A stretch of 11,229 nucleotides of DNA from a virus. Its lineage: Duplodnaviria; Heunggongvirae; Uroviricota; Caudoviricetes. Within the stretch, counting starts at the first letter, position 1. Each line of letters opens with the position of its first letter. Shown here piece after piece: positions 1 to 11,229 of this stretch. Both the position numbers and the translations under genes were made by a program. The notes under the pieces were generated by a model. That model was not told the origin of the DNA. It worked only from the letters and a program-made list of their open reading frames with translations, and did not search any database. Where the stretch lies: positions 1 through 11,229 of the IMG/VR virus record IMGVR_UViG_2778261502_000002. One strand, 5' to 3'.

Positions 1-84
1 ATGGCGGGTTATTTGTCCTGGTTATTCCCCCGTTGTAAAATCTCTCCTAAACTTAACGGTACGGCACCACACTTCGGGGATGAA

Positions 85-276
85 ATGTTCGCGCTGGTAC
101 TTTTTGTTTGCTACCTGGATGGCGGTTGTGAAGATATTGTTGTGGATGTCTACAACACGGAACAGCAGTGTCTTCATTCTATGAGCGATCAACGGATCCG
201 CCAGGGCGGTTGTTTTCCGATTGAGGATTTTATAGATGGTTTCTGGCGACCTGCGCAGGAGTACGGTGATTTTTAA
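85..276 (+). CDS. yebW: small conserved protein, YebW-like (63 aa)
   Basis: Frame is open from position 1 (track ORF 1..276); the internal ATG at 85 gives a 63-aa product MFALVLFVCYLDGG... Its stop abuts the pphA stop (276/277). Identity is recalled from the K-12 yebW-pphA neighbourhood and not verified. Confidence 0.4.
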   Translation: MFALVLFVCYLDGGCEDIVVDVYNTEQQCLHSMSDQRIRQGGCFPIEDFIDGFWRPAQEYGDF

Positions 277-933
277 TTATTGCAATTGCACAAGAGTCAG
301 TTCGCCCCCAAAGACAGCACCGGTATCAATATAATGCAGGTTGCCAATATCCACGCGATGTCGCAACGGTGTATGACCAAACCAGAAATGATCAGCACCT
401 GTAATTCCCTGCCCTTTTGGGCGTTCACCTAATCGTGAGCGGCTCCACAAGACCTGATGCAAATCAACGTCCTTTTGCCATTCATAAACATCATCTGGAT
501 AATCGGCATGAGCAATAACATGTTTGCCGGTGCGGCTGTGTACTTCAAGAATAAAGGGCAAATGCTGACATTTTTCCAGCGCCGTTTTCGCTTGTTTCTG
601 TTGATTATCTGCCAGCGCAATAAACCAGTCGCCGCCATTCATCAACCACAAAGACATCTGCTGGGATGCCAGCGCATCCATCGCCATCTGTTCATGATTG
701 CCTCTTACCGCACGAACCCAATGTTGTTCCAGTAACTGCAGACAACGTAAACTTTGCGGCCCACGATCGATAACGTCTCCCACTGAGATAAGTAAATCTC
801 GCCACGGATCAAAACGACAATGCCATAATTTGCGGCGCAACTGCTCAAGACAACCGTGTATATCGCCAGAAAGCCAGATATGTCGCCATTGATGACCCGC
901 AATTCTCTGATAAACGGGCGCAGGCTGTTTCAT
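277..933 (-). CDS. pphA: serine/threonine protein phosphatase 1 (lambda-phosphatase-like metallophosphoesterase)
   Basis: The track ORF 277..936 starts at a TTG; the first ATG is at 933, giving 218 aa MKQPAPVYQRIAGHQWRHIW... Metallophosphatase motifs GDIHG, GDVIDRG and GNHE are present. The adjacent SdsR-like fragment favours pphA over pphB. Confidence 0.8.
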   Translation of the reverse strand: MKQPAPVYQRIAGHQWRHIWLSGDIHGCLEQLRRKLWHCRFDPWRDLLISVGDVIDRGPQSLRCLQLLEQHWVRAVRGNHEQMAMDALASQQMSLWLMNGGDWFIALADNQQKQAKTALEKCQHLPFILEVHSRTGKHVIAHADYPDDVYEWQKDVDLHQVLWSRSRLGERPKGQGITGADHFWFGHTPLRHRVDIGNLHYIDTGAVFGGELTLVQLQ

Positions 934-1067
934 CAATATTTTCCTCCCGCGCTAAAGATCACATAATCTTAACAAGAATGTTAAAAAACGCTGGACTCAG
1001 ACAGTAGAGTGTGTGTTATGGTTGACTATAAAGTCAGCGAAGGAAATGCTTCTGGCTTTTAACAGAT

Positions 1068-1100
1068 AAAAAGAGACCGAACACGATTCCTGTTTTCGTC
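1068..1100 (-). ncRNA. sdsR: 3'-terminal fragment of sRNA SdsR (RyeB), terminator arm plus U-tract, probably cut by prophage insertion
   Basis: The minus strand reads ...ACAGGAAUCGUGUUCGGUCUCUUUUU (1093 down to 1068), which matches my recollection of the SdsR 3' end. The partner stem arm at 1092-1100 is degenerate (GACGAAAAC), so the hairpin cannot form. The reference sequence is recalled from memory only. Confidence 0.35.
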
Positions 1101-1397
1101 AACAAACAACAAAATCTTTTAGAATTAATGTGTTAAATAAATTTATGCTCATCTTTTAATCCCTAACACATACCATTACATATTAATACATTCAATTAGT
1201 TACCATTTTTTTCGAGTTTTTTAGAGAAATTTTCGGGAATATTTCAGATCAATCCATGCATACACAAGCAATTCCTGTATTGAATAATTCCGTAGCAATT
1301 ATGTAAAATCACCTCCGGCTGATTTTCATTCAAACTCGCGCTATCGAACGTCCATCAGCCAGCCGTGGCACGTTCTTGCATACGACGTGCTACGGTT

Positions 1398-1535
1398 TCA
1401 TTTATCTCCGACCGGACACTTCTTATACAAAGTCGATACGCCAACATCATAGATGATCGCCACCTTCTGGCGAGAAACTCCTGATGCAATTAGTCGTCCA
1501 GCCTGCGCCCATTGCTCCGGCGTGAGAGTAAGACA
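1398..1535 (-). pseudogene. C-terminal remnant of a Pin/Gin/Hin-family DNA invertase (HTH DNA-binding domain only)
   Basis: Minus-strand translation gives ...LTLTPEQWAQAGRLIASGVSRQKVAIIYDVGVSTLYKKCPVGDK*, closely resembling the Gin/Pin C-terminus as I recall it. The frame is closed by a TGA at 1554-1556, so only about 45 residues survive and there is no catalytic domain. Confidence 0.6.
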
Positions 1536-1610
1536 GTAAACTGTAGAAAAATCTCATTAAACTTAATATAATGATAAGTTACAGAATTATATTTACTGAA
1601 TAATAGATAT

Positions 1611-2156
1611 ATGAACATTAGTGAACTTAAAAACTGTATACACTATGAAGTAATAGGTTATAAACGCCCTTTCTCCTGGCGAAAAGCAATTGTTCGCGCA
1701 ATAAAACACAGAAGATTACGTTATTTATTTTGGTGGCGCATAGCAAAATATCTTTTTGATAAAGGCGGATACCGGCGAAAGGTTGCAGGAAAAATAGAAC
1801 GCTTCATTCTTGATAAATACAATGTAACCGTTCCCTTAACTGTAAATATTGGTAAAGGGTTCGACATATCTTATCTCAATGGCGTTGTTATCGGTCACAA
1901 AGTTACAATAGGTGAAAATTGTTCAATTAAGCCTGGAGTAACTATTGGACTTCGCGGTGAATTTAATGATATGGATATTGTCATAGGAAATAATGTAACC
2001 ATCGGCTGTAACGCCACCATCCTTGGTGGCAAAGTGCATATAGGGAATAATGTAAAAATAGGAGCTCATGCATTGGTACTGCATGACATTCCTGATGACT
2101 CCACATTCATTACTAAATTTCACTCTGAAATTATTTATAACTCATCTCACACATAA
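1611..2156 (+). CDS. hexapeptide-repeat (left-handed beta-helix) O-acetyltransferase, WcaB/CysE-like
   Basis: 181-aa ORF with ATG start and tandem hexapeptide repeats (VIGHKVTIGENCSI, VTIGLRG, IVIGNNVTIGCNATILGG, VHIGNNVKIGAHALV). GC content is visibly lower than the flanking phage genes. The only plus-strand gene inside the tail-fibre locus. Confidence 0.7.
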   Translation: MNISELKNCIHYEVIGYKRPFSWRKAIVRAIKHRRLRYLFWWRIAKYLFDKGGYRRKVAGKIERFILDKYNVTVPLTVNIGKGFDISYLNGVVIGHKVTIGENCSIKPGVTIGLRGEFNDMDIVIGNNVTIGCNATILGGKVHIGNNVKIGAHALVLHDIPDDSTFITKFHSEIIYNSSHT

Positions 2157-2166
2157 TTCCGTTTAA

Positions 2167-2739
2167 TCACAGCTCTGGCCATACGATATCCGGGGCTGTA
2201 TTTATATCAATCCGACTCACTAATACCCGGTATTTTTTCCAGGAAGATAGCATCGAGACTTCTTCATCAGTTGCCATTTCAAAATTAACAGCATCCTGCA
2301 GAATTGTTATGTTATCAGTCGCATCCTGGATTAATCTTGCCTTTTTCTCTTCCGCCTCCCGGATCCGGAACAGTTTTTCTGCTTCTGCATCTTTCACCCA
2401 AGCTGTGCCGTTCCACTTCTGAAACTCCCCATCCGGCGACAACCAGGTGACATTTTCCGGTAATGGGCCAAGTTCAGAAATAAATAACGCGTCGCCGGAA
2501 GCCACGTCATAGACGGTTTTATCCCGATGGTCTTCAACGAGATGCCACGATACCTCATCACTGTTGAAAACAGCCACAAAGCCAGCCGGAATATCTGGCG
2601 GTGCAATATCGGTACTGTTTGCTGGCAGACCTGTATGAGGCGGAATATATGCGTCACCTTCACCAATAAATTCATTAGTTCCGGCCAGCAGATTATAAAT
2701 TTTTATGGTCCGTGCTTGTTCAGTCATTCTGAAATCCAT
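2167..2739 (-). CDS. tail fibre assembly protein (Tfa; lambda Tfa / Mu U family)
   Basis: 190-aa ORF, ATG at 2739 with AGAGGT ribosome-binding site 5 nt upstream. Sequence [41 protein letters not shown]... matches the Tfa family as recalled from K-12 TfaE/TfaR. Confidence 0.85.
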
Positions 2740-2747
2740 GTTTACCT

Positions 2748-3650
2748 CTACTTAATATCAGAGACAGAATATTGTTTATTGAGCGTATGGGTGTGAGCAC
2801 CAATAACGATGCTACTTCCGTGGCTATGTGCGCCAGAGGTGACATTACCTACGGGATTTTCTGGATTAATCCGATGTATATGCGAATCAGGGCGAAACCG
2901 GTTATTAGCCTGATGTTGTATCAGTACATCATCAGCCTGATGTTCAGGATTAATACAGACCTGCCCGGAACGTGAGCAATACGTCCGATAATCGCCGCAT
3001 CCAATATATTTAGTATCCGCATAACGGCAAACAGAATTACCCGGACAGTATGCATATGTGCCAAATACTGCCGACTGGCGAGATTGTGCGTATTCCCAGT
3101 TAATTGATTCTGTTTTTTTATTAAAGTTATCCCAGGCCTGCTTCATCTGGCGGGCAACACTTTCAAACGGCACCTGACCACATCCGGCCCCCATTGCAGG
3201 GAATACCACCGTGGTTATTTTCCTGTCTGTTGTTGCGTTTTTATTGTGCTGAAAGATGGCAAGTAAAGCGGCCCACGTAGCGTTATATACAGCGTCTGTT
3301 CCATCAATTGTCAGCGGAACACGCATTGTTGGCGCATGTACCAGCCAGGGGTGATGATTATGCCCCGTTTCAATCACAAATGCAGAACCTACAGGCTGTT
3401 CGCCTAGATATTCACGAAGAATATGATTCTGAACGCGGGACTGTAACTGAGTACCGAAGAATGCGGTAATGGCGGCATCAACGCCTCCATCCATCAGGCC
3501 GAAACTATTTGCCGCACTTACCATGCAGTCAAATTCTCTGATTGTTTCAAATGGCTTTCCGACAATATTCACATTATCTGCATTTGCGAATACCCGCTTA
3601 AATGCTTCAGCCATTTCTGTTACTGGTGCAGAAAGAATGAGCGTAATCAT
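2748..3650 (-). CDS. macro-domain protein (ADP-ribose-binding/processing fold) with Cys-rich, HxH-containing C-terminal module
   Basis: 300-aa ORF whose ATG (3650-3648) overlaps the fibre gene stop as ATGA, with a GAGG site upstream. The N-terminal ~175 aa carry the macro signature: [18 protein letters not shown] (N-x6-GGVD loop) and [14 protein letters not shown] (second phosphate-binding loop). They align colinearly with YmdB/MacroD as recalled. The C-terminal ~125 aa have 6 Cys and HIH/HSH/HTH motifs. Confidence 0.7.
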
Positions 3651-4762
3651 GCAAGCCTCACAATATAGTTAAATGCGATGTTTTTGACGGTGTTTTCCGC
3701 GTTACCAGCAGCGTTAACGGTGATGGTGTGTCCATGTGAGCCAATTGCAACGGAGTGCGTATGTGCACCAATACCGACAGTATGTGTATGCGCCCCAGCA
3801 CTTGCTGCAGTACCTGATACTGAGTGGGTATGCGCGCCAGCAGAATTCGTTGCACCTAAGTGAGTTTGAGCAGAGTTCGACGAAGCTACTCTACCGGAGC
3901 TAACGTTAGCATTATCCCCCTGAGATATCGGATGCGTATGTGCACCTGCTGAAGCTGCTGTTCCGCTAACGCTATGGGTATGCGCACCAGTGTTATTCGT
4001 AGATTTAGTTCCATAATCAAACGATGATGTGTTTTTTGTCCCTAAATCTGTATTTGAAGCACTGGCGCTGTGGGTGTGCGATTTAATGCCGTCCTGTTCC
4101 AGGCTAAGAACATCACGTCCACTTGCAGGCTTACCTTTGATTGTCCAGCCACGCATATCAGGGATCACGCCTGACGGATAAGCGGCTGCAAGTTTCGGGT
4201 ATGCAGACTTGTCAAAAGTCTGTCCCTGCATCAGAGCATAACCAGATGGAACTGTATCTGATGGCCACGGGATCGGGGCACCTACAGGAAAGGTCGAATT
4301 ATTTTCCAAACCAAGATATTTAAGGACATCAGCAACAGAGCTTTTTGCCAAAATATCTCGCCCAACCTGTGTCAGGTCAGCCAAATTAGCGGTATCTTGA
4401 TTGGTAAAATACGGTAATTTGTTTTCGGATGCTGAAAGATTAGCAAGTGCGGTAAGTATGGCATTAATTCTCTGATAGTTCTTATCTAATGCAGACGACA
4501 TTTTTGCGATAAAGCCGGCCTGATCGCCATCGTCCTGTACATCCAGTCCACTTTCATTTGCTGTATATTGTGCTATTGCAGATGCAATAAAGCTGGCCTG
4601 CCGAATAACCTTATTGACTTGCGCACTGGATGCTTTCCCTGCTGTAAATCCGGATAAAAGCGCAGGCAACGCTTCCCATTCCTCCTGCGACATAACATTG
4701 GCATTTTTACCCGTTGCGAATGCTTTAAAGTCATTTTTTGCCATCAGAGTAATACTCCCCAT
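3647..4762 (-). CDS. side tail fibre protein with HxH-repeat distal domain
   Basis: 371-aa ORF. An alternative ATG at 4744 overlaps the upstream gene stop (TGATG) and may be the true start. The C-terminal third contains seven HxH motifs and a duplicated 19-aa unit [19 protein letters not shown]. Position between baseplate genes and tfa fits a fibre gene. Confidence 0.8.
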
Positions 4763-5424
4763 GCCCCTACATCAAAACCACTGATAAATTCGTTATCCAT
4801 ATCAAAACCAAAAAATTTTGAACCTTCCGATGGGGTTTCCACCGAAGGTGTTTCAATGCCACCCGCCCACACCCCGGCGGCTTTTACTGTGAGATATCCC
4901 TGTTTAATTGCAGCAATTAACTCACGCGATACATCTGAAATATCTGTATCAGGAAAGGCCCAGACCGATATCGTCATGTCCTGGTTATCGACAATCTGCA
5001 TTCGCAGCCCGGATCCTGCTGTCGCCGCGTCAAGAATTGCTGGAAGCGAATCATTCCGTCCGTCCCAGTTATTAATCGCAATCTTCGCTTTAAGGATGAC
5101 ACGATAAGTTTCATCGCTGAGGTACATGTATCCGTAATCAGGATCGTATGGCCCCTGCCATACACCCTGATCATATCCAAGCCCGTCGGTATCCCAGCTG
5201 AAATAGACACCTGAGATAAGCTGGCTGACAACACGACTACGTCCGATCCACAATCCCAGAATGTCAAGTTGCACACCAACCGCGGAGTCAATATCAAATG
5301 CAGTAATCAACCCTCTGGTGGCCGCCGCAACATCAATAAGCGGCCGGGTCATCAGATCAACATGCGCAAGAAATTTAGGTTTGGTGGCGTGGTAGTTCGT
5401 GATTAGTTCGGTGTATTTGCTCAT
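4744..5424 (-). CDS. baseplate protein, Mu gp48 / P2 gpI-like (YmfQ/DUF2313-type)
   Basis: 226-aa ORF whose ATG overlaps the J-like gene stop (ATGA at 5421-5424). Assignment rests on position between the J-like gene and the fibre gene, plus family resemblance. Confidence 0.7.
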
Positions 5425-6620
5425 GACTCCACCGTTATAACGATATTTTCCGGGGTACAGGACGCAGATTCGTTATATCTGATATCAATGTTTGATGACG
5501 ACAAAGCCCCCGGAGATTTACCAATCGTCAGTTCCTGAATATCGTAATAGCGTGCATTCCCGCCACTCACCACGCCAAGATTCGCCGGTGAGTAAATGCG
5601 ACTTAAAAGGACCGAATCACCGATCGTCAGACTATTGATATAGTCGGAAATAGCCTGCTGGATCTGCTGCCCTATCTGTGAGGTATAACCCGTAAAAACT
5701 TTTAATTTAATCCGGGCATAAACAGGCACATCACTGGAACGCGAGAATTTGATTACATGGGGATTGCCGTATTTATCCGGAACCGTAACGGATGTTGTAC
5801 CGTGAGTGGCTGTCCCCTGGCCTTTATTCCCTCTGATAGCCTGAGCAATATCCGTTACATCACCGCCATCCACAATTACAGCAACAGAGTGTGGCGGTAA
5901 CCCGTTACCGTCCTCCGAACCAGTATCGTTTTCATAGAGTTTGTGGCGGGTTACACCGGTAACATTAGAAACAGCACCATCCAGTGCTTCAAATGGGGTT
6001 ATTGATGGCAACGCAACACTTTGCGACTGGCGGATACGTAACTCCGCATCAGTTTCTGCCGGAGTGCCCACAGTAGCCGCAGCAGGATTAGTTACCGAAA
6101 CCCAGCCACGGGTTGGCGTATTAATTTCAGTGATAGTTCCAGCCAGCGCCGCCACTGCACCACTGACGGAACATTTTGCGGTCACCATCACTGTACCATC
6201 CACGCCGACCACCACTGAAGCAGGCAAACGCCATATCACATTATTACTGTCTTTCACGCTGCCATTAATGATGGTTGTTCCGGCAGTTCCTGTAAGAAGC
6301 AAATCAACCGTAGAATTCGTCGCGCCTTTACGTGAAATACCATTTATTTTCACGTTACTGGTCAGTGCAGCCCCATAGCCGGTTGCCGGTGAAAAACAGT
6401 TGTAGACAGTTATCGCCATATTATTGGCATCATGAATCGCCAGCGCCATCAGAGCCACCATCTGGCCGTCTTTGCTGTCCGGTTCGAGGTAGGCATCACT
6501 GCCATAAATCTGCTGAAAATAGCTAATCAGGGTGCTGAGTATCGTCTGATAATCAGGCGCACTGATCCCCTCCGCGGTTACCTTTGCAGATAAACCGAGA
6601 GAATCAAGGTTCAGAGCCAT
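5421..6620 (-). CDS. baseplate J-like protein (Mu gp47 / P2 gpJ / T4 gp6 family)
   Basis: 399-aa ORF, ATG at 6620 overlapping the upstream stop (TAATG). Size and position in the spike / gp25-like / J / I gene order support the call. Confidence 0.75.
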   Translation of the reverse strand: MALNLDSLGLSAKVTAEGISAPDYQTILSTLISYFQQIYGSDAYLEPDSKDGQMVALMALAIHDANNMAITVYNCFSPATGYGAALTSNVKINGISRKGATNSTVDLLLTGTAGTTIINGSVKDSNNVIWRLPASVVVGVDGTVMVTAKCSVSGAVAALAGTITEINTPTRGWVSVTNPAAATVGTPAETDAELRIRQSQSVALPSITPFEALDGAVSNVTGVTRHKLYENDTGSEDGNGLPPHSVAVIVDGGDVTDIAQAIRGNKGQGTATHGTTSVTVPDKYGNPHVIKFSRSSDVPVYARIKLKVFTGYTSQIGQQIQQAISDYINSLTIGDSVLLSRIYSPANLGVVSGGNARYYDIQELTIGKSPGALSSSNIDIRYNESASCTPENIVITVES

Positions 6621-6973
6621 TACGCCTCCGATGTAACAGTCGTTATTCCATAGAGAGTGTCGATTTCAGCGGAAAACATGACACGTCGGGTCGTGGTATC
6701 CACCGTCGTATTGAAAGAGAGGATTGATTTAACGCCCCGCGTTTCGAGGATGCGCTTACGGATCGCCAGGTTGTAGGTTTCCGGCTTCTGCTTACCGAGT
6801 ACGGACTGGATCCACGGAGTCCCCTCGGTGGTGTCGAGAAACCATTGCCCATACCACAATTCGAATCGCGTTTTTACCGCCTGCGCCACGGCCTCCGGTG
6901 AGTTAATCAGCCAGGTGTCATCACCGCTGCCAAAGGTGTAATCGCCATCGGCGTCTTCACGTCTGTATCGCAT
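6620..6973 (-). CDS. small baseplate protein (gpW/gp25-like, Mu gp46 position)
   Basis: 117-aa ORF, ATG at 6973 overlapping the spike gene stop (ATGA). Assigned by size and position between spike and J-like genes; the family call is tentative. Confidence 0.55.
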   Translation of the reverse strand: MRYRREDADGDYTFGSGDDTWLINSPEAVAQAVKTRFELWYGQWFLDTTEGTPWIQSVLGKQKPETYNLAIRKRILETRGVKSILSFNTTVDTTTRRVMFSAEIDTLYGITTVTSEA

Positions 6974-7725
6974 CAGTTTACCCCATCGGTATTGCTTCCA
7001 CCGCGCTGAACACCGCCATGAGTGTGCGTATCATCGATTGGCTTGCCGTTAGCCTTCACGCTACCCAAAAACTCAACAGCACCAGTGATTTTTGAAGCCA
7101 CACCAGAAACAACAGACCCCACCATGCCACCCATCCAGGTTAACAGGCCATGAATGGTTACTTTCTCAGAAAAATCAGCCAGGGGGGCAACCACATCAAG
7201 CCCCCCCGGAGCGACAATTTTAATTTTCCTGGTATCAGGATTAAGCTCAAAATAGGTGCTGCCGTCGTCACTACGCAACTGTGTGGCACTGGTATTAATA
7301 CCGCTAATCTTCCTAGCTTGCGACTGGGGACCGACAATACAAAACGCATCCGATAAATCATGCATTCTGTCATCAACAGGCTCCTGTATCCCGCCGCTCT
7401 GCCACCAGAAATCAATACAACGATCGGCAAAAACGACAAGACACTCATCCCCGGCTTTTACCGGAAAAGTCAACGTACAGCCTCCGCCGCGCGGGAATAC
7501 CACTGGCACATCCACCAGCAGGGGTAATGTCGTCGACTGGTTGATTCCATTTGAGTCCGGCTCATAGCCTTTAATCGCAGGTTGAACAACCACTGTTACC
7601 GTGTCCGGATCAAATGACTGGACGATGCCGGGCATAGAAACACGCAGCGCCGACATGACAGAGCCAGCAAGTCTTACATCGGCCTGTTCTTTGCTACCAA
7701 GTTGAGCGCTTAAAGAAACGGGCAT
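6973..7725 (-). CDS. baseplate spike / assembly protein V-like (Mu gp45 / P2 gpV family)
   Basis: 250-aa ORF, ATG at 7725 with a GGAGA site 7 nt upstream. Contains a GDECLVVFADR segment that fits the gpV N-terminal fold as I recall it. C-terminus GKPIDDTHTHGG has an HxH motif as in metal-loaded spike tips. Confidence 0.7.
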   Translation of the reverse strand: MPVSLSAQLGSKEQADVRLAGSVMSALRVSMPGIVQSFDPDTVTVVVQPAIKGYEPDSNGINQSTTLPLLVDVPVVFPRGGGCTLTFPVKAGDECLVVFADRCIDFWWQSGGIQEPVDDRMHDLSDAFCIVGPQSQARKISGINTSATQLRSDDGSTYFELNPDTRKIKIVAPGGLDVVAPLADFSEKVTIHGLLTWMGGMVGSVVSGVASKITGAVEFLGSVKANGKPIDDTHTHGGVQRGGSNTDGVN

Positions 7726-7744
7726 TCATATGTCTCCAGAAAGT

Positions 7745-7766
7745 AAAAAACCCGCCGGGTGGCGGG
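7745..7766 (-). terminator. rho-independent terminator for minus-strand transcription
   Basis: Perfect 6-bp GC stem CCCGCC/GGCGGG (7751-7756 and 7761-7766) with a 4-nt loop, followed on the minus strand by UUUUUU (7750-7745). Lies 19 nt downstream of the small membrane protein gene stop. Confidence 0.7.
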
Positions 7767-7784
7767 TTCATTATTGAAGTTTCA

Positions 7785-8024
7785 TTACTGCTTGTTTGCT
7801 TCTAACGCTTCAGCTATTCGGCGAAGATACTCATTGTTTTTAAATGAAACCATGATGCACTCAAAGAATATTCGGCAAAATACAGCACATAACAAAAGCA
7901 CTAAAGCGCCAGCAGCCTTCCCATTAACAAACGTTATAATGGCGGCAACAACCAGAAGTAACATTGTGATGCCATACAGAACGTTGATGATTTTTGGAGT
8001 TATTAATTTATCAAATCCGAACAT
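7785..8024 (-). CDS. small membrane protein (79 aa, two predicted TM helices), moron
   Basis: ATG at 8024 with AAGGAA site 9 nt upstream. Two hydrophobic stretches: ITMLLLVVAAIITFV and AAGALVLLLCAVFCRIFF. Low GC. Flanked by its own promoter-like sequence and terminator. Confidence 0.55.
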   Translation of the reverse strand: MFGFDKLITPKIINVLYGITMLLLVVAAIITFVNGKAAGALVLLLCAVFCRIFFECIMVSFKNNEYLRRIAEALEANKQ

Positions 8025-8060
8025 GTGACAAATTCCTTATCGTGAAAGTAGAAGTATCAC

Positions 8061-8088
8061 ATTATAATTACGAGTGATTAATCAACAA
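8061..8088 (-). promoter_or_regulatory. candidate sigma70 promoter (TTGTTG-N16-TATAAT) for the small membrane protein gene
   Basis: On the minus strand, -35 TTGTTG is the complement of 8083-8088 and -10 TATAAT is the complement of 8061-8066, with a 16-nt spacer. It sits about 35 nt upstream of the ATG at 8024. Sequence-only prediction. Confidence 0.35.
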
Positions 8089-8163
8089 TCTTTTTGCATG
8101 GAAAGGAACCGATGATTTTCGGCGCATCCATGCTGTTCTGCAGAAGCTGGACGCCAATGTAAT

Positions 8164-8499
8164 TCACTTCACCTTCCGGCAATCATACGTCCAGAACTCC
8201 CGAGGCTCGTCCATATTTTTGCGGATAACTTCAACGTTGAGGATCGCTTTTTTGTTTCGTTTGATGTAGTCCATACCTAACCAACGTCCAGTATTAGGAT
8301 CAGGTAACATCCATTGCATCATGACATTATCGAAATCGTCTTTTTGTTTCAAAAAGGTCATTTTTTGTGTTTCTGGCTTTTGACCATTGATGTGCATGAG
8401 GCCATCATTACCAGCATCAAAGCGGAATGGTCCGCACTGCGTTGCCGCCGAAACTGTTAACGGCAGGGCCAAGAATAAACAAAAAAATACTTTTTTCAC
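8164..8499 (-). CDS. secreted/periplasmic small protein (111 aa, signal peptide), moron
   Basis: GTG start at 8499 overlapping the hub gene stop (GTGA), with a GGAG site 7 nt upstream. N-terminus MKKVFFCLFLALPLTVSA|ATQ is a typical Sec signal peptide with a VSA cleavage motif. Two Cys in the mature part. No lipobox. Confidence 0.6.
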   Translation of the reverse strand: MKKVFFCLFLALPLTVSAATQCGPFRFDAGNDGLMHINGQKPETQKMTFLKQKDDFDNVMMQWMLPDPNTGRWLGMDYIKRNKKAILNVEVIRKNMDEPREFWTYDCRKVK

Positions 8500-9530
8500 T
8501 CTACATCTCCGACTTTGTCCAAAGTGCCTTTTGCCAATAGTTCTTTGCCACCTTTAGCCAGGCAAAGCAGGTCCATATACCACGCCTGCCCTCGGGTGTC
8601 GCCAGTATAATCAATGCTGCCCACAATGTAATCACCGTCAGTATTAATGCTGGCAGGCTGTGACATGCCTGGCAGACCGTTAACGTAGAGATTACCGTCG
8701 CTTTCAGACTCATCCAGTAGTGCTGGCGATTTCGCTACCTGGTCATTACTCAAAGAGGCACGGTATACAGATGCCTGATCCAGACGAATAAGCCCACCGA
8801 GCTTAATATTTGGATTAATCAGACATCTGACATTTACGCCAGCTCCCATCGTCTGCTGTGGCATACCGATAAGCCCGGTGTTAGCATTCAACACCGTAGC
8901 AACACCAATATATTTATCTTCAGGAACAATATTTACCAGATTATTTTCATACCACCAGTTAGCCTTACACTGCCCTGCGATATGATTCATCAACCTTGAT
9001 GTGTTTTGATAAACAACGCGACCCCGGGGAAATACCGTTTCAGGCATGTCAGGAACTGCGCCGGATTCGATGCCATATGGTTCGAATGATTTCATACCCA
9101 GACTGAAAAGATCTCTGTACTTCCAGCCAGCTGCCACTGTGGTTTTCACACTTGCGTTCAGGTGGCCTTCCCAGCTGTCAATACACTGCAACATGATCCA
9201 ACTGTCTGTGGCATTATCTTTACCAGTGACAGTAAAACGGATATCTCCATTGAATATCATACCAACGTTTTCATCAGGATAATTACCTGCTGCATCCGGT
9301 TGCCCCTTGTATCCGGCAATAACCTGTATACGCGAAAACTCCTTCTGCATAATCCGGTTCTGAGTGGTAGGGGACAGGTTATAAACCTTAAAATTCCCAA
9401 CGAATCCATTGAATATGGTCGCAGGCATTTTCTGAATATTGAAAGTGACTTTAAGCTCAGAAATTTTTATCCCGTCGCCCTTATCATCAACAAGCAATAA
9501 TTCAAAGTGACGCATCCAGTTTTTCGACAT
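8496..9530 (-). CDS. baseplate hub / tail protein (Mu gp44 / P2 gpD-like), putative
   Basis: 344-aa ORF, ATG at 9530 with GGAG site 6 nt upstream. It immediately precedes the spike gene block in Mu-type order. The family call is by position and size only. Confidence 0.55.
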   Translation of the reverse strand: MSKNWMRHFELLLVDDKGDGIKISELKVTFNIQKMPATIFNGFVGNFKVYNLSPTTQNRIMQKEFSRIQVIAGYKGQPDAAGNYPDENVGMIFNGDIRFTVTGKDNATDSWIMLQCIDSWEGHLNASVKTTVAAGWKYRDLFSLGMKSFEPYGIESGAVPDMPETVFPRGRVVYQNTSRLMNHIAGQCKANWWYENNLVNIVPEDKYIGVATVLNANTGLIGMPQQTMGAGVNVRCLINPNIKLGGLIRLDQASVYRASLSNDQVAKSPALLDESESDGNLYVNGLPGMSQPASINTDGDYIVGSIDYTGDTRGQAWYMDLLCLAKGGKELLAKGTLDKVGDVE

Positions 9531-9532
9531 TG

Positions 9533-9835
9533 TTACTCCGTGAAAACATAGAGGTGTGAGAGCGTTCCAAGATCGAATTGCGTCGGATTCTCCTGCCCTG
9601 CCACGTCGCAGAGCACCACCAGAGAAAAACCCAGATCCATATATCGATACTGTGCCAGCAGGTCAGCCCCCGTAATCATCGGTATACCTGATATAATGGC
9701 GGAGCCATTGCTGTCAGCAAGATCCAGAACCCAGTACTCGCCTCGCCAGATGACAGACAGGTGATAAACCGAACCGTTAATTGTGGTGGCAAAAGTCTGA
9801 TTGTCAGCAACCAGTGGGATTTCTACGGCTTTCAT
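9533..9835 (-). CDS. hypothetical phage tail-module protein (100 aa)
   Basis: ATG at 9835 with AAGGTGA site upstream; the stop lies 2 nt before the hub gene start. No family recognised. Confidence 0.5.
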   Translation of the reverse strand: MKAVEIPLVADNQTFATTINGSVYHLSVIWRGEYWVLDLADSNGSAIISGIPMITGADLLAQYRYMDLGFSLVVLCDVAGQENPTQFDLGTLSHLYVFTE

Positions 9836-9838
9836 GAA

Positions 9839-10198
9839 TCACCTTCCCAGAAATAAATTGCTCAAATACCCATCAACAGTGGAGATACCTTCTTGCGCCA
9901 TCTGTGGCAGCGATTTCAGAATGGAATTATTCGGCGGCACCGTTGTTTTGGTGCCTGTATTCTGCACAGCAGACGTTCCGACTCCCTCGGTCATATTGTT
10001 TTTCGGGGCAATGCGAATACCTTTGCGGGTCATATCATCCGGGATAGCATCGACTGCTTCGCCGATGATCCAGGACGAACGATAGGACCATTCCACCAGC
10101 ATGCGGTTACGACTGGTGAAATTAGCCCGGTAGGTGGATGCAGAGTGCTGGTTAGGTGTCTGCATCCCTAATGGGCGACGCAACATACCAGGAAACAT
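9839..10198 (-). CDS. hypothetical protein, possibly the 3' fragment of a truncated upstream tail gene
   Basis: 119-aa ORF. An in-frame stop lies 27 nt upstream of its ATG, and its 5' end overlaps the start of the plus-strand exonuclease-like ORF, so the start context looks non-native. Confidence 0.3.
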   Translation of the reverse strand: MFPGMLRRPLGMQTPNQHSASTYRANFTSRNRMLVEWSYRSSWIIGEAVDAIPDDMTRKGIRIAPKNNMTEGVGTSAVQNTGTKTTVPPNNSILKSLPQMAQEGISTVDGYLSNLFLGR

Positions 10199-11229
10199 TC
10201 GATGAAGAGAATCAGGTTGAAGCTAAGGAAAATGATCCGGAGGAAATGGAAGGCGCTGAACATCCGCACAAGGAGAACGCTGGCAGCAATCCGCATTGCG
10301 ATTGCAGTGATGAAGCTGGTGAAGCGACAGCACCTGTAGAAACTGAAATCATGTGGCCGTCATATTTCGAGCCAGGCCGCTATGAAAACCTCCCGAACGA
10401 GGTTTATCACTCCGCCAACGGAATAAGCAGCACAATGCTGAAGGATGCCCGCATCAGCCTGATGTATTACCACGGACGGCACATTGCCGGAACTATTCCG
10501 GGCGAGGAAAGTGATGCATTGCTGCGTGGGCGGATTATTCACAGCTATGTTCTGGAAACGGATAAATTCGCTGATGAGTATGCCATTCCGGTACCGGTTC
10601 CTGAATATGTGGTTACTACTTCTAACGAACTGATCGCCATCATTAAAAAACACAATGCCAGTCTGCCAGCACCGATGACACCAGAGCAGATGAAAGAGTG
10701 GATCGAAAGCTACAACAGCACTCTTATACAGCCACTGTCGGTAAGTGCCGGGGCCGAAGAAACAGGCATCCTTTACTGTTCGCTTCCGGAGGAATTCCGG
10801 CGTATTCCTGAGGGGGAAAAACACACAGCATCAGCAATGAAAGCCTGTATTAAAGAATACAACGCAAACCTCCCTCCTCTGTTGAAAACCAGTGGATCAC
10901 GGGAGCAACTTCTGGAGCAAATTGAAACTGTAGATCCAGAACTGGCAAAAAAAGAACGTGCTAAATCTTTGCCTTACAACATCAGTGGCACAAAAGAGCA
11001 ATTAACCGAAATCGCACGGAAAATTCGCCCGGAACTGGTGACACTGGAAGACTGGCAAAAACGCCAGCAAGAAGAAAACGCCGGGAAAACGTTTATCAGT
11101 CCGGATATGTATGAACAGGCAAAAAATATTCACGCTGCACTGCAAAACAATACCGATGCAGCAAGGCTACTCAACCACCCGGATCGCAAATCTGAAATCA
11201 GCTATTTCGGGTTTGATGAAGAAACCGGG
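10171..11229 (+). CDS. partial ORF (at least 353 codons, runs off the window end), putative phage exonuclease (RecE/exonuclease VIII-like); 5' end uncertain
   Basis: Long open frame not in the ORF track because it has no stop within the window. An in-frame TAG lies at 10153-10155; candidate starts are ATG 10171, 10246 (GGAGG upstream) and 10351. The product is acidic and K/E-rich. The exonuclease assignment is from weak recollection and needs a search. Confidence 0.45.
   Translation, partial: MGDATYQETFDEENQVEAKENDPEEMEGAEHPHKENAGSNPHCDCSDEAGEATAPVETEIMWPSYFEPGRYENLPNEVYHSANGISSTMLKDARISLMYYHGRHIAGTIPGEESDALLRGRIIHSYVLETDKFADEYAIPVPVPEYVVTTSNELIAIIKKHNASLPAPMTPEQMKEWIESYNSTLIQPLSVSAGAEETGILYCSLPEEFRRIPEGEKHTASAMKACIKEYNANLPPLLKTSGSREQLLEQIETVDPELAKKERAKSLPYNISGTKEQLTEIARKIRPELVTLEDWQKRQQEENAGKTFISPDMYEQAKNIHAALQNNTDAARLLNHPDRKSEISYFGFDEETG

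Follow-up and report, generated by a model that had tools for sequence, protein, structure and literature searches.

The window analysed here is an 11,229-nucleotide (nt) stretch of viral DNA (positions 1 to 11,229 of IMG/VR record IMGVR_UViG_2778261502_000002) that holds the tail end of an Escherichia coli prophage, and two small open reading frames (ORFs) lie in it between the baseplate hub gene and the gene for the membrane-piercing spike. ORF1, here called sp111, encodes a predicted secreted protein; ORF2 encodes a predicted inner-membrane protein of the DUF4282 family. Judged on anatomy alone, the region very probably consists of two independent accessory genes of a SEN34-like prophage, the first a fixed component of its lineage and the second mobile cargo in a variable slot. 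The features at the locus are as follows.

8496-9530, minus strand: baseplate hub gene (Pfam E217_GP41; PHROG 196, "baseplate hub"), its stop codon overlapping the ORF1 start
8164-8499, minus strand: ORF1 (sp111), 111 amino acids (aa), GTG start, PHROG 3443, no Pfam match; predicted secreted beta-barrel
8078-8155, minus strand: recombination scar of the other sp111 allele, namely its last 25 codons and stop, translating as GVQLLQNSMDAPKIIGSFPCKKIVD and a stop
7745-8090, minus strand: mobile DUF4282 cassette of promoter-like site, ribosome-binding site, ORF and terminator, 37% GC; left edge set by the divergence of loci L039 and L003
8061-8088, minus strand: promoter-like TTGTTG-16 nt-TATAAT (TTGTTG at 8088-8083, TATAAT at 8066-8061)
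7785-8024, minus strand: ORF2, 79 aa, ATG start, predicted DUF4282 (Pfam PF14110) two-helix inner-membrane hairpin
7742-7769, minus strand: intrinsic terminator of the cassette, a hairpin and T-run
6973-7725, minus strand: membrane-piercing spike gene (Pfam N-terminal spike domain and Apex motif), the downstream border of the variable slot

Both ORFs lie where the original prediction had put them, and comparison with homologues indicates that both are real genes under purifying selection. The GTG of ORF1 overlaps the hub stop codon as GTGA, within ...GGAGATGTAGAGTGAAAAAAG..., and GGAG stands ~7 nt upstream, in agreement with the overlap first described. A Sec signal peptide had also been proposed, and the N-terminus of sp111, MKKVFFCLFLALPLTVSA with cleavage expected before the following A, has the layout of a signal peptidase I substrate by inspection and hydropathy: a positive N-region, a hydrophobic core, small residues at -3 and -1, and a +1 residue other than a lipobox cysteine. 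Among 45 homologues inspected, this region varied in sequence but was hydrophobic in all. A lipoprotein was considered and rejected, as the conserved cysteine lies several residues past the predicted cleavage site and not at +1, and a lipobox-like FSAC is found in one clade only. Cys22 and Cys107 are invariant across two clades that are ~28% identical to each other; about ten further positions are common to both clades, and the first 20 residues share hydrophobic character only. The AlphaFold model is an 8-stranded beta-barrel (pLDDT [predicted local distance difference test], 87.6) with no specific structural relative, and sp111 most likely folds, on the strength of this model, as a small disulfide-closed beta-barrel in the periplasm. 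Neither a family profile nor a specific fold match placed it with the MliC/PliC/Ivy lysozyme inhibitors. RefSeq names the protein "STY1065/STY2022 family," for which a literature search returned nothing relevant; a paper on virion proteomics of phage MMNM deals with a different lineage and does not mention sp111.

The position of sp111 is constant. It directly follows the hub gene in 80 of 80 IMG/VR loci, with the spike gene downstream in all 78 that were long enough to show it, and the genome and phage loci likewise have it directly after the hub wherever the hub was recovered. Homologues (134 close ones; 673 clusters by profile) come exclusively from Enterobacterales where the source names an organism, and none bears a functional name. 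sp111 and the hub diverge at a similar pace (median identity, 52% versus 56%), the sp111 identity matrix correlates best with that of the hub (rho = 0.54), and the median ratio of nonsynonymous to synonymous differences (pN/pS) of 0.38 is hub-like. No promoter or terminator of its own was found for sp111, which argues for a lineage backbone gene and not for a moron, since neither an own transcription unit nor variable presence in close relatives was seen. These comparisons indicate that SEN34-like lambdoid myovirus prophages carry sp111 as a fixed part of their backbone, an old, vertically inherited addition to the minimal baseplate. The solved six-component baseplate of Pam3 has no sp111 counterpart, and the Pam3 hub and spike genes are contiguous; in Edwardsiella phage GF-2, which lacks sp111, the hub and spike genes themselves overlap. 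Because the hub thus runs straight into the spike in both phages, ORF1 and ORF2 are extra to the minimal baseplate, as had been claimed, and by the same comparison sp111 is extra only relative to such distant phages.

ORF2 had been described as a 79-aa two-helix membrane protein, and both the hydropathy profile, with two hydrophobic segments, and the AlphaFold model, a helical hairpin (helices 10-33 and 37-78; pLDDT, 86), bear this out. Residues 2-71 match Pfam PF14110 (DUF4282) with 42.2 bits (cut-off, 27; E = 1.2e-10), and the protein falls in PHROG 12129. The family alignment conserves R51, E55, and the motif FKNNEYLRRI, with R51 and E55 in the second helix. The ratio of nonsynonymous to synonymous substitution rates (dN/dS) is 0.10-0.17 in two pairs with unsaturated synonymous sites. 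An antisense ORF at 7759-8028 on the plus strand was rejected as a gene, being a mirror image of ORF2, whose frame is the one under selection. The original statement that neither protein matches a recognised family needs amending after homology searches: ORF2 belongs to DUF4282 and ORF1 to PHROG 3443 and the "STY1065/STY2022 family." Profile searches of the PDB with either protein gave no functional lead.

ORF2 sits in a self-contained unit. AGGA precedes its ATG by 9 nt, and the promoter-like sequence that had been noted upstream stands as a candidate: the pattern TTG-N19-21-TATAAT has a single occurrence on both strands of the whole window, which is this site, and shuffling of the 139-nt spacer yields it in 0.5% of cases (P about 0.005); the -35 hexamer of the site is its weaker part and is weighed below. 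A 5-bp inverted repeat, ATCAC-N13-GTGAT, surrounds the TATAAT (8056-8077, minus strand) and may be an operator or a chance match. The strong terminator of the original prediction was recovered at 7769-7748 as a 9-bp stem with six G-C pairs followed by a T-run (-16.7 kcal/mol; z = -2.7), and a hairpin with T-run lies 3' of the DUF4282 gene in 74 of 78 IMG/VR loci. GC content is 37% in the cassette, versus 45% in the hub gene and 51% in the spike gene.

The left edge of the cassette is the point at which strain 97-3250 (L039) departs from its cassette-less relative L003. The DUF4282 gene of L039 starts 53 nt after a different sp111 allele, so that the cassette is found combined with two sp111 alleles. 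The stretch at 8078-8155 of the window aligns to the 3' end of the allele carried by L039 and L003, and this alignment marks it as the fossil of a later sp111 allele swap, which accounts for the 139-nt spacer. Movement of the cassette as a unit is indicated by L150:3440-3790 and L151:3440-3790, where DUF4282 cassettes are ~90% identical over ~350 bp and the flanks are unrelated. The L150 copy is of Erwinia type and occupies the same myovirus baseplate slot; the L151 copy is in a lambdoid tail, with a putative gpI-like gene on one side and, just downstream, gpJ on the other. Their similarity begins ~65 nt before the ATG and stops where the terminator T-run ends, and both boundaries are sharp. 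Elsewhere, DUF4282 copies were seen next to the ends of prophages, flanked by insertion sequence (IS) elements, or downstream of a lysis cassette. Of 5426 complete E. coli genomes, 83 have the cassette at ≥80% coverage, those of strains E9 and 97-3250 among them. Nothing occupies its position in L031, L055, and L092, most relatives have different cargo there, and DUF4282 is missing from the majority of SEN34-like prophages. Absence from the same position in close relatives, an own terminator, deviant GC content, and transfer as a unit together identify the ORF2 cassette, at the level of sequence, as one classical moron, that is, portable cargo. With its own promoter-like site and terminator, it could be expressed from a repressed or, as here, decayed prophage.

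The slot that receives this cargo is highly variable. Between sp111 and the spike gene lie 64 bp when the slot is empty and up to 2968 bp when it is filled, and the slots of 134 loci hold ~60 unrelated cargo families, of which ORF2 is one alternative. Two Erwinia/Pantoea prophages carry the known defence gene PD-Lambda-1 there (E = 5e-83; L034:3406-4635 and L035:2829-4058), and a Pantoea prophage carries the candidate defence gene PDC-S42 (E = 2e-36; L032:4435-5304). An Arc-like repressor and a P22-type antirepressor occur together, each family in 12 loci; further cargo includes Fic/Doc, Phd/Doc, a BRO-N protein, a lipoprotein, DUF2335, T5orf172, a Clp-protease-like protein, and a bPH_2 membrane protein. 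By these profile matches the slot is a cargo hotspot that holds antiphage and other accessory genes in related prophages. Two further kinds of slot cargo were observed. Three genes at L020:4463-5625 (186, 77, and 120 aa, the last with a weak SecB-like match) may form a toxin-antitoxin-chaperone module, and phage Mulock and a Pantoea prophage (L017:4820-5272 and L022:4296-4739) carry a 147- to 150-aa protein with an N-terminal membrane helix and a Cys-rich C-terminus weakly like the end of Mu F-like head proteins.

The original prediction read ORF1 and ORF2 as a single two-gene moron. Their differing distributions contradict this, as ORF1 is present in every relative examined, whereas ORF2 is one of the ~60 slot cargos and DUF4282 also occurs without ORF1, in other phage types. 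The moron designation holds for ORF2, which carries the sequence hallmarks, and fails for ORF1, a backbone gene without transcription signals of its own. The observation made earlier is thus confirmed and its interpretation partly supported.

The prophage itself is a deletion remnant. Positions 1-936 are E. coli chromosome with yebW and pphA, followed by the prophage tail end on the minus strand, where the gene order from 9835 to 3647 is plug, hub, ORF1, ORF2, spike, sheath initiator, J-like wedge, DUF2612 wedge, and tail fibre. The genes flanking those listed above are as follows.

9533-9835, minus strand: plug gene (Pam3_gp18)
6620-6973, minus strand: sheath initiator gene
5421-6620, minus strand: J-like wedge gene
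4744-5424, minus strand: DUF2612 wedge gene
3647-4762, minus strand: tail fibre gene

Homology to the intact relative L001 ends at 10009, within a Dit-like tube-initiator gene, and 10171-11229 is a fragment of recE (exonuclease VIII). The prophage has lost the late promoter and most late genes, including those for tape measure, sheath, tube, and head. Among isolated phages, SEN34 (genus Brunovirus), Klebsiella phage Mulock, and the vB_EcoM-606R2 group come nearest; SEN34 is described as a lambdoid phage of myovirus morphology (PMC5261728). None of the complete E. coli genomes contains the whole window, and an Rfam search of it returned no RNA family. Elsewhere in the window, a 300-aa ORF at 2748-3650 (minus strand), between the fibre gene and a fibre-assembly gene, fuses a Macro domain (E = 2.6e-18) to a His-rich tail-fibre-like C-terminus; its sole defence-related match is a faint one to DarG. 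A hexapeptide-repeat acyltransferase gene with 35-38% GC lies at the prophage end beside the fibre genes (1611-2156, plus strand) and may be a surface-polysaccharide-modifying moron; in relatives this place is taken by a pin invertase module or by different acyltransferases.

We propose that both products of the hub-spike interval act at the cell envelope, and we give the whole package, anatomy together with proposed functions, a probability of roughly 0.45. In this scheme sp111 would be co-translated with the hub and exported to the periplasm, and the DUF4282 protein would sit in the inner membrane and hinder incoming phages at the step of DNA entry that involves the tape measure or tail tip. 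The exclusion or host-modulation role first suggested for the pair is a plausible hypothesis. The case for DUF4282 comes from its neighbours. Divergent homologues (37-60% identity) begin -1 to 61 nt after a gene of 568-1102 aa in 38 of 39 loci; the upstream genes that were scanned matched TMP_3 in 8 of 10 cases and SLT in 1 of 10, and those downstream matched Dit_like in 6 of 8. DUF4282 likewise follows the tape-measure gene in Klebsiella siphovirus prophages and in GF-2. The sites of DUF4282 genes include positions downstream of the tape-measure gene in tails of myovirus and siphovirus type, upstream of gpJ in a lambdoid tail, and, in the window, upstream of the spike gene; this bias to tail-tip genes is the main reason for favouring an entry-blocking role. 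The DUF4282 gene of GF-2 has an Arc/Ant module directly after it, an arrangement that recalls sieA next to immI in P22. We tentatively suggest, at clearly worse than even odds, that DUF4282 is a superinfection exclusion protein of the HK97 gp15, T4 Imm, or P22 SieA type.

Several results weigh against this proposal. A stricter promoter scan did not call TTGTTG-16-TATAAT, which it missed because the -35 hexamer is weak, matching at 3/6 positions only. In the myovirus group the DUF4282 gene lies ~12 nt past the tape-measure stop codon, which leaves no room for a promoter and makes it a late-operon gene there, so that expression in the lysogen is not obvious. The same DUF4282 protein (99-100% identical) accompanies hubs that are only ~47% identical, as well as tape-measure proteins with and without an SLT domain. 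Association with such different hubs and tape-measure proteins argues against narrow, self-targeting exclusion of a lock-and-key kind, and a host inner-membrane factor appears the more likely target. Searches of PADLOC and NCBIfam with ORF1 and ORF2 gave no match, PHROGs searched up to E = 10 returned "unknown function" families only, and a literature search found no paper mentioning DUF4282. As for sp111, without a promoter of its own it would not be made in the lysogen unless an internal promoter exists.

The same tail-gene neighbourhood could be read differently, with DUF4282 serving the lytic cycle of its own phage together with the tape-measure protein and not acting as prophage-expressed cargo. 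It might protect the inner membrane of the producing cell against tape-measure or tail-tip proteins that are membrane-active, or offer the baseplate and tail a place on the membrane at which to assemble. Placement directly after the tape-measure gene in nearly all divergent loci fits this explanation, as does the late co-expression implied by the ~12-nt gap. However, DUF4282 is dispensable, as the slot of close relatives is empty or filled with something else and most SEN34-like prophages do without the gene; as a cassette with defined ends it also moves into modules that are unrelated and to nontail sites such as those after lysis genes and between IS elements, and a terminator follows it in most loci. 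We consider a lytic function improbable on this balance.

DUF4282 could instead be a small membrane-active effector: holin- or antiholin-like, type I toxin-like, or one that modulates envelope stress or physiology to the advantage of the lysogen, for reasons that have nothing to do with phages. In the structural model its size and N-in/C-in two-helix layout are those of class II holins, R51 and E55 in the second helix are invariant, ORF2 has a weak, sub-threshold Pfam match to the inner-membrane protein family YbhQ, and in L012 the DUF4282 gene lies just after a holin-lysozyme-Rz cassette. That lysis cassette already has a holin of its own, though; ORF2 matches no holin family in Pfam or PHROGs, and an effector of this kind would leave the strong bias to tail-tip modules unexplained. 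There is some chance of such a role, but a low one, and the entry-blocking proposal is retained for DUF4282.

For sp111 we put forward, with considerable doubt, a late-made periplasmic binding protein that acts on an envelope step, either in exclusion or in protection of progeny. Its fixed place between hub and spike, its translational coupling to the hub, and its coevolution with the hub are also what would be expected of a virion or baseplate-assembly protein whose hydrophobic N-terminus is not a cleaved signal peptide. That explanation has little probability in our view. The N-terminus behaves like a signal peptide, keeping its hydrophobic core and small -3 and -1 residues while its sequence varies; the invariant cysteine pair suggests an oxidising compartment; and the Pam3 baseplate and GF-2 do without the protein. 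Moreover, the hub and spike of L002 are 98% identical to those of the window and its sp111 is only 67% identical, which argues against a tight structural fit. Very unlikely, and set aside, is a role in which sp111 would inhibit, from the periplasm, the lytic transglycosylase carried by the tail of its own phage, in the manner of T4 Spackle or the MliC/PliC lysozyme inhibitors, as the predicted small periplasmic beta-barrel and the SLT domain in the tape-measure proteins of SEN34, L002, and L003 might suggest: sp111 accompanies tape-measure proteins without an SLT match in L001 (intact, with the same sp111 allele), L004, and phage Mulock, and SLT tape-measure phages lack sp111 in the case of GF-2 and probably L190, where no sensitive search was made.

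A broader proposal, which we hold unlikely but worth stating, is that DUF4282 hairpins are a widespread, unrecognised entry-blocking family carried in promoter-gene-terminator cassettes that home to DNA-delivery genes and that sp111 represents a second new family, a Spackle-like periplasmic barrel, the two together being a temperate counterpart of T4 Imm and Sp. If the DUF4282 cassette excludes phages, a function would be gained for a Pfam family without literature that comprises 624 clusters at 50% identity, and it would be the second well-defined entry blocker genetically tied to tape-measure genes, after HK97 gp15. sp111 is a conserved, predicted secreted protein, apparently made alongside tail proteins, for which current models of tail assembly or lysis do not account. 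If neither gene affects infection, the locus is an ordinary moron beside an orphan gene. Independently of this, the sp111-spike slot is a precisely bounded place to seek new antiphage genes in Enterobacterales prophages, with PD-Lambda-1 and PDC-S42 already found there.

Among known systems, HK97 gp15/YebO, T4 Imm, T4 Sp, P22 SieA, Cor, and Llp showed no similarity to ORF1 or ORF2 in Pfam, PHROGs (to E = 10), NCBIfam, or PADLOC, and the likenesses are those of gene arrangement and product type. HK97 gp15, the inner-membrane product of a moron adjacent to the tape-measure gene, prevents DNA entry (Cumby et al. 2012, reviewed in PMC3594210). Like ORF2, it is a small inner-membrane protein from a self-contained, AT-rich cassette with promoter (a candidate one in ORF2) and terminator that interrupts a tail operon, and its family, like DUF4282, has chromosomal homologues outside phages. 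In contrast, gp15 belongs to the YebO family, which has no sequence relationship to DUF4282, and ORF2 has two membrane helices, lies between sp111 and the spike gene, and is only proposed to act in exclusion.

In the gene order of the P22 immI region, sieA and immI lie in an accessory region of the late operon by DNA-delivery genes, as the slot does, and slot relatives carry Arc and a P22-type antirepressor. P22 SieA likewise blocks DNA entry (PMC10883804). It is unlike ORF2 in having 162-164 aa, three membrane helices, and an unrelated sequence. T4 Imm and Sp are precedents for membrane and periplasmic exclusion (PMC11436027). As with ORF2 and sp111, both are small phage-encoded proteins, Imm a membrane protein and Sp one secreted to the periplasm, and the T4 pair acts on envelope steps of DNA entry. 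No sequence or fold similarity connects the two pairs, T4 Spackle being helical, whereas the sp111 model is a beta-barrel. T4 is moreover virulent, and ORF1 and ORF2 are evolutionarily independent of each other, with sp111 apparently expressed late.

The baseplate of the window follows the Pam3/E217 type in gene order and gene families (Dit-like tube initiator, plug, hub, spike, sheath initiator, J-like wedge, and DUF2612 wedge); the difference is in the hub-spike interval, which is empty in Pam3 and contains two additional ORFs in the window. Prophage defence hotspots, as in P2-like phages and P4 satellites, are fixed positions at which unrelated defence or accessory genes alternate. The slot differs from these in belonging to the SEN34-like lineage and in lying after the hub-linked gene of a secreted protein and before the spike gene, and it resembles them in that PD-Lambda-1, PDC-S42, and toxin-antitoxin pairs alternate at one place.

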